A stretch of DNA of 64,000 nt from a virus (lineage: Duplodnaviria; Caudoviricetes), in the IMG/VR virus record IMGVR_UViG_3300001598_000052, positions 2,768 to 66,767 of that record; one strand, written 5' to 3'. A program made the translations under genes and the position numbers. The notes beneath the pieces are model-generated. The model was not told the origin of the DNA and did no database searches. It saw nothing but the letters and a program-made list of their open reading frames with translations. Positions within the stretch are counted from its first letter, which is position 1. The number at the start of each line of letters is the position of its first letter. Below are positions 6,074 through 32,866 of the stretch, one piece after another.

Positions 6074-6157
6074 TAAAAACAATATTTAATTTTTATATCA
6101 GGCAACTAGTTTAAACTTATAAAAAATAATTCTATATTTGAAGCAAGAGGTACTATT

Positions 6158-6433
6158 ATGAGTATTTTTGATAAATATAATCGTGATTTACGAAAGATTA
6201 TTCCCAACGGAGTAATCGAAGTTTATACTGTCAAAGACGGTGAAGAAACTCTGGCCATGTCAAGTGAAATGACTCATGATTCAAGATTTGCCGATGTCAT
6301 TATCCAGAACGTTAAAGACGGGGCCAAGACAGTTTTCAAGTATAAGACTCGTGATGAAGTCATTAATGAAGCGCTCGATTATTTGAGTCAGTTTAAGCCG
6401 ACTGAATGTTACTTGTGGAATGACGATAAATAA
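6158..6433 (+). CDS. Hypothetical protein (91 aa)
   Basis: ORF track; RBS GAGGT; TATATT upstream. Confidence 0.75.
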   Translation: MSIFDKYNRDLRKIIPNGVIEVYTVKDGEETLAMSSEMTHDSRFADVIIQNVKDGAKTVFKYKTRDEVINEALDYLSQFKPTECYLWNDDK

Positions 6434-6450
6434 AATCTAAACTTTTTTAA

Positions 6451-25025: not shown

Positions 25026-25820
25026 TTAAACTTTTGGTAAGAAGAACTGCGGAATGAAAGAAATCGGAAGATTGATGTCTTCACCACAAACTGGACACTT
25101 AAACTTTGCATATGGCTTAGCAGTAAAGACATAATCAGTCAAAATATTTGTAAGCTTACTAAAGGAGAATGCATCCATATTACATATGTACTTATAAGCC
25201 TGCATCAAAGACAATTCTTTACCATTTACCTTATAAACATATGTACTAAGATCTAAAAGATCGGATGCAATTTCTTCAACAATCTGATCGTTAGTTTTTA
25301 ACTTAACTGTATCGGCTTCTGTCTGAATAGTGGGGAACTTAATAGAAATCTTATCTTCACCTATTTCAAATTCATCAGGTAAGTCTTTATCAAGATAAGA
25401 TACTTCTAGGTTACTCAAACAGTATTCATAGTTTGCGATAGTATTACATTTTGTACATTCACCACGTAGCTTAAATGGAATGTCATTATATGTGAATGAA
25501 CGTAGATAGAAGATTAACCAAATCTTATCACCTACTAATACCTTATTAACATCAACACCAAAAAGACAAGACTGGATAACACCATTAATAATACCCTGAA
25601 TATTTTTTTCGTCGATCGTTGCTAAGTTTTTAATATTCATTGTGGTCAACTTTTTGACATATAAATCACCGGGATAAAACTTACCTCGAGACGGAAGCAA
25701 AGTCTTATCCAATAATACTGCTCCAGCTGGAATCTGGTTTTTCATTTGTGCAAGCGCAGATGCTAAATTGCCACTATTAACATTATTTAAATCAATTGGT
25801 TCTGATCTCATAATTTTCAC
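25026..25820 (-). CDS. Baseplate hub subunit (T4 gp26-like), paralog B
   Basis: LPSRGKFY...GDKIWLIFYLRSFTY...CTKC...CPVCG. Confidence 0.75.
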   Translation of the reverse strand: MKIMRSEPIDLNNVNSGNLASALAQMKNQIPAGAVLLDKTLLPSRGKFYPGDLYVKKLTTMNIKNLATIDEKNIQGIINGVIQSCLFGVDVNKVLVGDKIWLIFYLRSFTYNDIPFKLRGECTKCNTIANYEYCLSNLEVSYLDKDLPDEFEIGEDKISIKFPTIQTEADTVKLKTNDQIVEEIASDLLDLSTYVYKVNGKELSLMQAYKYICNMDAFSFSKLTNILTDYVFTAKPYAKFKCPVCGEDINLPISFIPQFFLPKV

Positions 25821-25869
25821 CTCACTTAAAAATTTATATATTTATATTTATTATGTTGATTTTAATGTA

Positions 25870-27804
25870 TTATCTACGTGTAATTAATCCATATTGGTCC
25901 ATAGATCTATATGCACTACCATATTTTTTCATCCATACATCTTTTTTAGTTCTTCTAACACCATTATTCTTAATAGTGCCAGCACTTTCAACAATATAAC
26001 GTTCACCGTCAATTCCAACTTCTGCTACAATATGACCTGGGCCGCCATTTGAACCTCCTTTAATTAATACGTCTTTAATTATTGAATTTTCAGATAGTAT
26101 AAGTGTTGGTTGTTTACCTGGTGTTGCCATGTCCTTATACATTTGATCTGTGCTTTCATATGTGCTAAAACCCACTACACCACCTTGAACTGGACCATCA
26201 TGTTCAATAACTTGACTTTGGCCATACGGTGTAAGACCTGAACCTTTCCAAAGTAATGAGCCACTAGCACCATCAGCTATGAGGAGCCCGGCAACAAAAC
26301 CATTACAATCGATGCCTTTAGTTGTACCATTTATTTCGGCACGTTTAATGTCATTTTCATTGTTAGTAGCAACATCGATAAATAAGGTTTCGCCAGTTTT
26401 CGTATCATAACCTACTTTACCACCGTAATTATAGCCCCAGTCTTTTGTCATCTCAAGATATGCTGCTGCACCCATGCCAGCGATACTACCACTGGGTTCA
26501 GTTATCTTTTTACCGCCTTTAACGCCAGCTACTTTTTCCCATTCTGCTCGTAAATTTGGATCTGAATTAAGCGCAGCAACAAGTGAACCTCCATATTTAA
26601 CAACAGCTTGAAAAACTTTATCTCGTGCTTCTTGATTTTCACCAAAAAGCTTACCAGCTTTATCAACAGTTTCCATATTTTCTACAAATTTAGCGAAATC
26701 TGCTTTTTGTTCAGGCGTAAAGTTGTCGGCTTCATCTGGGTCTATATTTGAATCTAGCCATAACTTTCGTAAAAACACATCTTCTGTGCTATCTATGCCG
26801 TCATATAAATTAATACCAAGTCCTAATAAATAGAATATTTTTTGTTGATTTTCTGATAGTTTTTCAAATTCGGCCTGTAAATCAAAATCAGTACCTTTTG
26901 TACGACCGTTCATCCTTTGATATGCAACATATTTTGTTTTAGCTATATAATTTAAGTCTTTCTTATTAGCCCCTGTAAGTTGTTGTAAAAAATCGAGGTT
27001 AATACCATCTAACAATTGATCATATGCAGCGCCATATTTTGCAACCAAGTTTGCTTCTTTTTGATCTAAAGTTTTCATGTTATCGAAGAATTCTTTGTTA
27101 GCTTTCTGTCGTTGCTCTTCTAATTCTCTGGCGCGTTTCTTAAGGTCATCATTTAATGATGTTAATTCATTATTATATGTAGCTAATTCTTTCGCAGCTT
27201 CTTCTTCACGGCGAGCTAACTCATCTTTGTTAACTAAGTTAGTTAGATCTTCTGTTTTTTCATTAAGTTTTTCCATTAGTCTATTCAATTCGTAAACAAC
27301 GGCAAATTCAGCTTCTATTTCAATTGGTTCACCTTTTGCTGTTTGACTAAATTCTGGTTGACTAAAAGATTTAGGTCTGCAAGCGTATATCTTTGATGAT
27401 ATTTTTTGCTTATATGAATAATCATATACATCGATTTGTATCTGAATAATTGGAGGAATTACAGTCATCCAATATTGTCCGCTCGGGAATAATAAACTAC
27501 TTAAAAAATTCGTAACATCCATTGTTTCAGTTTCAATGAATGATATTTTTAATGTTGAACTTGCAAAATCAAAAAGCGGTATTACATATTGGGTATTACC
27601 AAAACGTCTACGTGAATCTGACGAGTCTATTTTCCATGCCGGCATATCTACACTTTTTACATCAAATGATGGATTATAATAACCGCCACCTTGTTCAGGG
27701 TCGCCTATAGGTTTTAAATCATATGTATAAAAAGTTACTTTAAATCTATTTGAAAGTAACGGTGTCATATTATTTTGGAATTTGTATACGTTTAATAAAC
27801 CCAT
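25870..27804 (-). CDS. Tail-tube-like N-terminal domain, coiled coil and C-terminal NlpC/P60-like peptidase
   Basis: N-terminus NRFKVTF...VKSVDMP...LKISFIE; C-terminus GYNYGGK...GIDCNGFV...GHIV...IVES. Confidence 0.65.
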   Translation of the reverse strand: MGLLNVYKFQNNMTPLLSNRFKVTFYTYDLKPIGDPEQGGGYYNPSFDVKSVDMPAWKIDSSDSRRRFGNTQYVIPLFDFASSTLKISFIETETMDVTNFLSSLLFPSGQYWMTVIPPIIQIQIDVYDYSYKQKISSKIYACRPKSFSQPEFSQTAKGEPIEIEAEFAVVYELNRLMEKLNEKTEDLTNLVNKDELARREEEAAKELATYNNELTSLNDDLKKRARELEEQRQKANKEFFDNMKTLDQKEANLVAKYGAAYDQLLDGINLDFLQQLTGANKKDLNYIAKTKYVAYQRMNGRTKGTDFDLQAEFEKLSENQQKIFYLLGLGINLYDGIDSTEDVFLRKLWLDSNIDPDEADNFTPEQKADFAKFVENMETVDKAGKLFGENQEARDKVFQAVVKYGGSLVAALNSDPNLRAEWEKVAGVKGGKKITEPSGSIAGMGAAAYLEMTKDWGYNYGGKVGYDTKTGETLFIDVATNNENDIKRAEINGTTKGIDCNGFVAGLLIADGASGSLLWKGSGLTPYGQSQVIEHDGPVQGGVVGFSTYESTDQMYKDMATPGKQPTLILSENSIIKDVLIKGGSNGGPGHIVAEVGIDGERYIVESAGTIKNNGVRRTKKDVWMKKYGSAYRSMDQYGLITRR

Positions 27805-27855
27805 ATTCTATTTATAACCTCAATTTTTATAAATAACATATTGTGAGGTGATGTT

Positions 27856-31223: not shown

Positions 31224-31969
31224 TATTCACCTCCGGTTGGTGCAAGGTAATTAGCGTTTCTATTATCATACATTACGTTATATTCCATCCAGTCATATAT
31301 GAAAGTTGCATTTCTTGTGATAGTATCAGTTGATTCATAACTAAATTCTATACCTTCAGTACCAATATATTGGCAATTATAAAATTTATACTGTTTGTAA
31401 CAACTTTCAGGCTCGTTATTATTTAGTGTAATTTGTGGGTCGAAAATTTGAACAGAAATAATACCGTGACGTAAATTTACGTAATTTCTATCGTCTTGCT
31501 CATTAATTTCAGTAATTGTATCATCTGAAATCATTTCTCTAGCATATGGAACTGGTATTTCTTCATTATTATCAAAAAAATATTTCTTACTATTACCAAA
31601 AACGGAATAAAGTTTTTCAAGAATATTAGTTACATCATATCCTGAATTTTCATTAAATCGTACAGTAAATTGACCACCATTATCAACACGTGTTAATTTT
31701 TTGAACGATAAACCACCATAAAATAAATCGGTTGATTCAATTTTTCTTTCACCTACGCTTATACTAACTGCTGCTTTTGATAATATATCCATATCACCAT
31801 TTGTAATATACTTCACAGGATAATTAGCATCATTTAAAATATTAAATCCAACGAAGTCAGAAAAATTAATCTTAAACGTCCATGCTAAAGCTGGAGGGGT
31901 ATTATAAAAATCATTATCCCATATAGAACGTATATTACCAGTTTTATTTAATCGACTATTTACTGCCAT
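31223..31969 (-). CDS. Tail-tube-like protein (gp19/gp54 family)
   Basis: FYGGLSFKKL...FTVRFNE...YKFYNCQY...FSYESTD...ATFIYDW. Confidence 0.6.
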   Translation of the reverse strand: MAVNSRLNKTGNIRSIWDNDFYNTPPALAWTFKINFSDFVGFNILNDANYPVKYITNGDMDILSKAAVSISVGERKIESTDLFYGGLSFKKLTRVDNGGQFTVRFNENSGYDVTNILEKLYSVFGNSKKYFFDNNEEIPVPYAREMISDDTITEINEQDDRNYVNLRHGIISVQIFDPQITLNNNEPESCYKQYKFYNCQYIGTEGIEFSYESTDTITRNATFIYDWMEYNVMYDNRNANYLAPTGGE

Positions 31970-31994
31970 GTTATATTTATAATAACATTAGTTA

Positions 31995-32412
31995 TCCAGC
32001 GCAATGCGCTGATGTTTGCGATGCAAACATAGTTTATTGGCGAAGCCAATCTGGCGTTGCCAGGCTAAGTAAGATATTGAATTTATGTATAAATTTACAA
32101 GTAAATTTAAATCCAATAAAGCCTATAAGACTAATTGGAAAAATCCAACGTGGAATTTACATGTGAGCTTACGGGTTGGTCATCCTGTACTCCGGCTACA
32201 TCTCACAATACCAATGGCGGCTGAGTGTATTTTTTGCTAGAAAATACTTCAATAGTGTTTCGTTATCAGTGACAGCTATTAGCGTTTAACTGGTCATAGC
32301 ATTTGCCTGATCATAATGTAAGACTACCACTTCTAGTCTTAAACGGCCAAAGACATGCCGACAGCTTTAATTCACTTCGTTCCTGTAACTCTGGTCTTAA
32401 ATGTACTGAGTT
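31995..32412 (-). ncRNA. Putative structured non-coding RNA or origin element (~420 nt)
   Basis: ORF-free and GC-richer than flanks; many stems; preceded by TTAGCA-N17-TATATT (32443-32415); ends in four abutting triloop hairpins. Confidence 0.5.
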
Positions 32413-32473
32413 CAAATATAAGAAATGTTTTTTAAAATGCTAACAGAAATTAGCATTTATTTTTGATTTTTTC

Positions 32474-32830: not shown

Positions 32831-32866
32831 ATTATTCCTTTATTGGTTTAAAGATATAAATATAGT

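Follow-up and report, generated by a model that had tools for sequence, protein, structure and literature searches.

Cow-rumen-2 is reportedly one of the candidate RNA motifs of Weinberg et al. 2017. It has so far been an orphan Rfam entry, a 106-nt metagenome motif with no host, boundaries or function. The Rfam 15 paper lists it as RF02947 (PMC11701678). From the same habitat, ROOL and GOLLD are precedents of large phage-associated RNAs, and they form RNA-only assemblies (PMC5737381; 10.1101/2024.12.08.627333). Non-coding transcripts of two further systems are relevant here. The phage T4 origins oriF and oriG need a promoter and an adjacent A+T-rich unwinding element and no specific sequence, and extend over about 100 bp; oriE uses an early-mode promoter, and the more active T4 origins lie near transcriptional divergence (PMC3016281). 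ColE1 RNA II is a long structured pre-primer, the fold of which decides hybrid formation (PMC11012335).

The locus and its cow-rumen-2 core

The locus lies in a virus contig from IMG/VR (IMGVR_UViG_3300001598_000052, 66.8 kb, estimated to be 17% complete), of which a stretch of 64,000 nt, here called the window, was analyzed. T4-type late promoters, a gp26-like baseplate hub gene (PF12322) and tail-tube-like genes are present on the contig, which belongs to a giant, uncultured T4-like phage from the ruminant gut. The late promoters are regarded as real because the window holds 31 sites with their motif, TATAAATA, where 13 are expected, most of them directly 5' of an ORF on the same strand. In several late genes the motif was only about 5 nt from the ATG (sites 31974-31981, 27809-27816 and 32855-32862, with ATGs at 31969, 27804 and 32867, respectively), a spacing with which the late mRNAs would be leaderless or almost so. 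In other genes of the window the leader was 17-30 nt long and had an AGGTGA-type site.

On the minus strand, a gap of 504 nt separates the stop codon TAA of a 118-aa ORF (32476-32474) from the ATG of a 248-aa ORF (31969). An initial annotation, made from the sequence without database searches, had placed in this gap a promoter-driven, structured element of about 420 nt, read as a novel large phage ncRNA or a transcription-primed origin. The features that we recognize in and around it are the following.

32435-32458, minus strand: terminator-like hairpin of the upstream 118-aa gene, AAAUGCUAA-UUUCUG-UUAGCAUUU, read from the sequence
32413-32443, minus strand: predicted promoter, TTAGCA (32443-32438), N17, TATATTTG (32420-32413), from the sequence and its conservation in homologs
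32109-32404, minus strand: conserved RNA body of about 296 nt, from homolog alignments
32347-32394, minus strand: 5' hairpin domain with Pb CCAGAG/CUUUGG, Pa ACA/UGU, internal loop GGAA/CA, CGA/UCG and the Pc hairpin, from covariance model R1
32261-32345, minus strand: three-way junction of Pf, Pd and Pe, from RNAalifold and pair counts
32345-32342 with 32264-32261, minus strand: junction helix Pf, CGUU with AACG
32341-32319, minus strand: junction helix Pd, UAAGACUA/UAGUCUUA
32311-32307 with 32269-32265, minus strand: junction helix Pe, AUCAG with CUGAU, carrying a lineage-specific insert
32148-32253, minus strand: cow-rumen-2 core (RF02947) with P1, single-stranded AGCCGCCA (32222-32215), P2, P3 and invariant ACAGGAUGACC (32188-32178), from the Rfam model
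32109-32148, minus strand: 3' domain with UUGGAUUU (32148-32141), UCCAAU (32139-32134), hairpin AGUCU-UAU-AGGCU (32132-32120) and UUGGAUUU (32116-32109)
32091-32108, minus strand: hairpin AAAUUUAC/GUAAAUUU, in this lineage only
31997-32063, minus strand: lineage-specific run of four adjoining triloop hairpins with G-C closing pairs, located past the RNA and ahead of the late promoter
31974-31981, minus strand: T4-type late promoter TATAAATA before the 248-aa tail-tube-like gene (ATG 31969)

The ORFs overlapping 32443-31995 encode 34-51 aa only and are not conserved in homologs across the stretch, and the G+C content is 0.39 for 32109-32404 vs. 0.29-0.30 in the flanks; the initial annotation had been right on both the lack of a credible ORF and the raised G+C. 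The folding energy of the single sequence was unremarkable (z = -1.8), and a generic promoter scan of the window by itself gave 11 sites vs. 9.3 in shuffles, no excess. The sequence of the locus alone therefore proves little, and the evidence for a folded RNA is comparative.

A scan of the whole window against Rfam gave a single match, RF02947 (cow-rumen-2) at 32253-32148 on the minus strand. With 104.1 bits (gathering score, 66), the match covered the full model (1-106). P1 has the UAGCAA-type loop of the family (GUAUUUU-CUAGCAA-AAAAUAC) and is followed by unpaired AGCCGCCA, and P2 encloses P3 with the invariant GAUGUAGC, ACAGGAUGACC and CCGUAAG, as in other members. The element is a member of the cow-rumen-2 family, catalogued but unexplained, and not an unrecognised element. 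Since its core is the Rfam motif (104 bits), the label 'novel' is not supported: the catalogued centre had been overlooked. All three helices of the core covaried in an alignment made with MAFFT and RNAalifold and analyzed without controls (32 homologs for the P1 pairs, 12-19 double-sided changes per P2 pair, and alternation of C-G with U-A and of G-C with A-U in P3). The stems GTATTTT/AAAATAC and TGTGAG/CTCACA, both noticed beforehand, are P1 and P2 of the family.

In the window region and seven homologous loci, no further Rfam family was found up to E = 5-10, and the models of RNase P RNA, tmRNA, 6S, SRP RNA, group I/II introns, ROOL and GOLLD gave no match. ARAGORN found no tRNA or tmRNA in the window. 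These scans agree with the earlier statement that no tRNA, tmRNA, RNase P or intron core is recognizable. A BLASTN search with the region against 50,697 phage records was likewise without a match. A tmRNA, including its permuted forms, was rejected for want of a T-arm and on the blank ARAGORN result. An RNase P-like reading, with 5' AAG(U)C and 3' GGCUU as P4, was also rejected: the adjacent 5' bases pair locally in the covarying helix Pb, in many lineages AGGCU finds a local partner in AGYCU, and none of the RNase P models matched.

The fold has several domains and a block of invariant unpaired nucleotides, as a catalytic RNA or a building block of a ROOL/GOLLD-like RNA-only assembly might have, and both its phage-only distribution and the several paralogs per genome would suit such a role. 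We nevertheless consider it improbable, given that the RNA shows no Rfam resemblance to any ribozyme or to ROOL/GOLLD, has no consistently self-complementary loop and, at about 300 nt, reaches half the size of ROOL and GOLLD.

Homologs and domains of the enlarged RNA

Homologs were collected by exact-pattern scans with the invariant core, which yielded 45 viral loci, 111 metagenome stretches and 11 stretches in species-representative genomes. The related phage loci numbered about 150, and 104 unique full-length copies remained after dereplication (50 clusters at 90% identity). One relative (L011) is 99% identical to the window locus and is uninformative on selection for that reason. In two viral contigs (L008 and L014) the 22-nt core pattern GTAGCCGGNNNACAGGATGACC was present with a score below Rfam gathering; these may be diverged or partial copies.

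In the homolog alignments, conservation spans from the promoter to about 90-150 nt past the Rfam motif. From the conserved AAG to 32 nt past an AUAGGCU anchor, the window copy measures 303 nt, and 34 lineages range from 274 to 339 nt. According to these alignments, the 106-nt motif occupies just the middle of a predicted RNA of about 275-340 nt, composed of a 5' hairpin domain, a three-way junction, the core and a 3' domain. Its 5' end, at about 32404, is inferred from the promoter and a conserved ACAUU, and its 3' end was set at the second copy of a repeated word described below. A conserved RNA thus stands in place of the proposed 420-nt element, at a reduced length of about 296-314 nt; bases 32090-31995 carry lineage-specific hairpins.

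The family form of the 5' domain is one long irregular hairpin with an internal loop GGAG/GUA and a Pc loop AAYYCAAU. In a MAFFT alignment of 31 lineages, 97.1% of cells were paired and compensatory (double-sided) changes occurred in 9/16 pairs. Compensatory cells numbered 56 vs. 12 in shuffles, none of 500 shuffles reached the observed value, and slid controls paired in 32-41%. A covariance model (R1) built from this alignment matched in 76 of 100 sources, once per locus and always adjoining the core, and the pair counts were the same on the alignment to that model (97-98% of cells paired). The window copy gave the weakest of the 76 matches (46 bits, 32415-32334). For the junction, Pf, Pd and Pe together had 99.3% of cells paired, with compensatory changes in 13/16 pairs, 0/500 shuffles reaching this level and slid controls at 29-45%.

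Covariation among homologs, named at the outset as a means of checking the element, was therefore found in the 5' domain and the junction with controls, in addition to P1-P3 without them. It also sorted the stems that had been read from the single sequence. The stem TAAGACTA/TAGTCTTA is the family helix Pd, and TTGGA/TCCAA is a 3'-domain hairpin with an alternative partner. Two others conflict with family helices, CGGC/GCCG and CGTTTAA/TTAAACG (the family helices being UCG-CGA and Pf CGUU/AACG), and AATTTAC/GTAAATT exists in this lineage only.

In the covarying helices, G-U pairs are confined to the reading of the minus (RNA) strand. At 32170-32192 (minus) the core resembles a ribosome-binding site with a mini-ORF (GGAG, 6 nt, AUG ACC NNN CCN UAA; Met-Thr-X-Pro-stop). 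This resemblance is probably a coincidence, because all variable positions of the look-alike are accounted for by pair covariation and its AUG lies inside a 4-nt hairpin loop. That the locus is not an RNA and works as protein-coding or DNA-level element (a small ORF, or a protein-binding DNA site) is barely credible. Such a reading could appeal to the overlapping 34-51-aa ORFs and to the Shine-Dalgarno-like layout of the core; the small ORFs are unconserved, and the pattern of compensatory helix variation with G-U pairs on one strand only contradicts it.

An unguided search for covariation between distant conserved blocks was too noisy because the candidate partners are invariant; the possible long-range or pseudoknot pairs AGCC-GGCU and AAGNC-GGCUU consist of such invariant bases. 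RNAalifold proposed the pair AGCC-GGCU, which showed no covariation, and inspection by eye gave none for a Pc loop kissing P2 or the linker.

The 3' domain contains a family-wide anchor, AUAGGCU (32126-32120 in the window), which forms the 3' arm of a hairpin with AGYCU or GCCU as the 5' arm. In about half of the lineages this hairpin is extended to 6-9 bp with differing sequences; the window has the minimal form, AGUCU-UAU-AGGCU. In an anchored test, mean complementarity was 5.7 bp within a lineage vs. 4.8 bp across lineages. MAFFT and RNAalifold gave an ungapped alignment and no structure for this hairpin; the anchored test gives the proposed structure of the 3' domain partial support.

In every lineage a word of 6-10 nt occurs twice, first directly past the core and then at the 3' end. 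The window has UUGGAUUU as this word; other lineages have ACAGAU, ACGGAAUAU, CCAGAA or GCAGGU, and larger forms have NNAAAAG, with NN (CC, CA, CU, GU or GC) identical in both copies. The match between copies averaged 6.8 nt within a lineage vs. 5.4 nt across lineages. The direct repeats TTAAGAC(C/T)AGA and GCTGTC, to which attention had been drawn before, are not kept in homologs, and it is this other repeat that is. No word complementary to it was found on the same strand within 3 kb. The first copy was slightly more open than average in predicted folds (accessibility 0.51 vs. 0.41), and UCCAAU (32139-32134), between the copies in the window, can pair with either.

Beyond the second copy, the hairpin at 32091-32108 is shared with L011 and absent in other lineages; it may be part of the RNA or lie outside it. 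The triloop hairpins at 31997-32063 (CUGGC-AAC-GCCAG, UUGGC-UUC-GCCAA, AUGUUUGC-AUC-GCAAACAU and CAGCGC-AUU-GCGCUG) are shared with L011 except for one loop base, absent from all other lineages and not followed by a U run. By this comparison they are placed outside the conserved RNA.

Promoter, neighbouring genes and copies per genome

The promoter TTAGCA-N17-TATATT (32443-32415), with its -35 box inside the upstream hairpin, was already part of the first description of the locus. It is present as described, and homologs conserve it as TTTACA-N17-TATATTTG with a fixed distance. The sequence TAnnTTTG stood 35-37 nt 5' of the GGAGCGAA anchor in 61/75 copies. On this evidence the promoter is taken to be of the host type and is conserved together with the RNA. 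The -35 box sits within the 3' arm of the hairpin 32458-32435, located 3' of the upstream stop codon, and this terminator-like hairpin would insulate the RNA gene from the upstream gene; a comparable hairpin with a U run 5' of the promoter was seen in 7/48 other lineages. A Bacteroidota-type promoter reading of TAnnTTTG was dropped: this sequence is not enriched in the window (74 sites vs. 96 expected), and the ribosome-binding sites of the phage genes are of the AGGTGA type. A promoter like that of the RNA (TTTAAAC...TATATTTG), with the same type of -10 box, lies at 6110-6140. Under its control is an early-type small ORF (about 91 aa, with an AAGAGGT site; window 6110-6434), in a stretch that is empty in a list of 100-aa ORFs.

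The RNA occurs in at least seven different gene contexts. These include the position between a tube-NlpC/P60 gene and the gp26-like hub gene (PF12322), a position 5' of a 156-162-aa gene, one beside a Rad50-like gene, and, as in the window, one 5' of a tail-tube-like gene. Many related phages carry a copy between the tube-NlpC/P60 and hub genes. The same gap in the window (25820-25870) is 50 nt with a late promoter only and no RNA, which argues that the RNA is not tied to this site. The arrangement with the tail-tube-like gene persists at 28% protein identity in one lineage (E = 4e-21).

The orientation of neighbouring genes was scored for ORFs of at least 80 aa. The next gene was co-oriented in 37/48 lineages (77%), often behind TATAAATA and with no terminator between, and UUGGA / UCCAA / UUGGA in the window would allow two alternative pairings. 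This is what a cis-acting leader of the downstream late genes might look like, whether a riboswitch, a put/EAR-type processive antiterminator or a translational control element. The co-orientation is, however, no higher than the baseline of 80% for neighbouring genes. The next gene was convergent in 11/48 lineages by ORF calls, clearly so in at least 8, and the RNA is not always followed by a co-oriented gene with an expression platform: a terminator 3' of the RNA was absent in 47/48 lineages, the remaining one having a terminator-like site, and a further 60-140 nt precede the start codon. The downstream genes come from at least seven unrelated families with their own late promoters; for the window, the late promoter that had been assigned to the downstream gene is indeed there (TATAAATA at 31981-31974, ATG 31969). 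With convergent downstream genes in at least 8/48 lineages, an obligatory leader function is unlikely, and we hold a leader of any of these kinds to be very improbable. The convergent neighbours also indicate that the RNA has a gene of its own. The earlier proposal of a large phage ncRNA with its own promoter, and not simply a leader, accordingly survives on covariation, the conserved promoter and the convergent downstream genes of some lineages, shorn of the adjective 'novel'.

The upstream neighbour was divergent in 21/43 lineages (49%) vs. a baseline of 22%. Two complete genomes with terminal repeats carried four dispersed copies each, at 51, 113, 273 and 359 kb (415,750 bp) and at 165, 235, 338 and 388 kb (424,163 bp). 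All 11 species-representative stretches were on gut or rumen MAG contigs resembling mis-binned phage DNA, and no true bacterial genome with a copy was found among these matches. The RNA was found only on phage contigs or on contigs that are probably mis-binned phage DNA. Contigs of 172-191 kb with two RNA copies are filed in goat-gut MAGs named Methanobrevibacter, and other copy-bearing contigs in MAGs named Bacilli, Clostridia, Succinivibrionaceae and Planktothrix. These contigs (L160, L161, L164-L166 and L169) are most likely phage DNA binned by low G+C, and for this reason the MAG names give no host information.

The conserved promoter, the lack of a terminator in 47/48 lineages, the four dispersed copies per complete genome and the excess of divergent upstream neighbours would all suit a structured pre-primer or R-loop nucleator. 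Such a transcript would fold, stay on the template just downstream and mark one of several origins or a clamp-loading site. The direct repeat, lineage-specific and without a complementary word in cis, could contribute if its internal copy anchored the hybrid by pairing with the second copy's template strand, and the DNA 3' of the RNA is A+T-rich. In ColE1 RNA II, an RNA segment is said to pair with downstream template DNA (a 1990 paper by Masukata and Tomizawa). We rate this reading as unlikely. Unlike in oriF and oriG, the part that follows the promoter is the most G+C-rich and sequence-constrained (296 nt, G+C 0.39, selected for sequence and structure), and A+T-rich DNA begins only after the RNA. 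The invariant core suggests a specific partner or chemistry and not mere hybrid formation, and the first repeat copy is only slightly above average in accessibility. Put generally, this proposal would make the enlarged cow-rumen-2 RNAs the pre-primers or R-loop nucleators for the multiple replication origins of giant T4-like phages; the internal copy of the repeated word would grip the template strand at the second copy, and a persistent hybrid would start in A+T-rich DNA 5' of late-gene clusters. In this form we regard it as slightly more doubtful again. GC skew was rejected as an origin marker in the window because it follows gene orientation and thus says nothing on origins.

Proposed role and relation to known systems

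The comparisons show that the locus is an independent gene with a host-type promoter, specifying a strand-specific, multi-domain folded ncRNA of about 300 nt. As a best guess this RNA acts in trans, and the explanation as a whole is held to be fairly probable. A trans-acting role as a ribonucleoprotein or decoy is ranked first among the functions, as a tentative choice. Under this proposal, the unmodified host polymerase would make the folded RNA. The 5' domain and the junction would hold the core in shape, and a single conserved partner, whether protein or nucleic acid and whether from phage or host, would dock on the invariant core. Lacking a terminator, the transcript would get its 3' end through processing or through trimming back to the 3' domain. 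Three observations count against it: the absence of a terminator in 47/48 lineages is unusual for a trans-acting RNA gene, and a simple trans-acting model explains neither the repeated word at the 3' end nor the enrichment of divergent junctions (21/43 vs. 22%).

To our knowledge, no sequence signature for replication origins is known in uncultured jumbo phages, and the pre-primer reading, if true, would supply one. The RNA can be set beside described systems. Like ROOL and GOLLD (PMC5737381), it is a large, multi-domain, phage-associated RNA known from comparative genomics partly based on rumen data; it differs in lacking any sequence or model similarity to them and in being about half their size. 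With T4 oriF, oriG and oriE (PMC3016281) it shares a promoter-driven non-coding transcript in a T4-like genome, dispersed copies, proximity to divergent transcription and the absence of a terminator. The T4 origins oriF and oriG, in contrast, are of about 100 bp without a sequence requirement, whereas here a conserved folded RNA of 300 nt lies between the promoter and the A+T-rich stretch. ColE1 RNA II (PMC11012335) is also a long, structured, promoter-driven non-coding transcript, and the repeated word could be a template-pairing segment like that of RNA II, but the invariant core has no counterpart there.

The closest relative is cow-rumen-2 itself (RF02947), with the same P1, single-stranded AGCCGCCA, P2/P3 and invariant core and the same rumen habitat. 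The Rfam model is 106 nt, whereas here and in all homologs examined the motif forms the middle of an RNA of about 275-340 nt with a promoter. Within this family the window copy is diverged: its 5' domain scores 46 bits, its Pc loop is GAAUUAAA and not AAYYCAAU, and its 3' domain is short, without a UUCCUG loop. With this analysis the Rfam entry gains giant T4-like phages of the ruminant gut as its host class, and it acquires a promoter, ends that are placed approximately, three domains beyond the core, a copy number of four in complete genomes and a range of gene contexts. The motif thereby becomes a defined phage RNA gene, amenable to cloning, probing and deletion.
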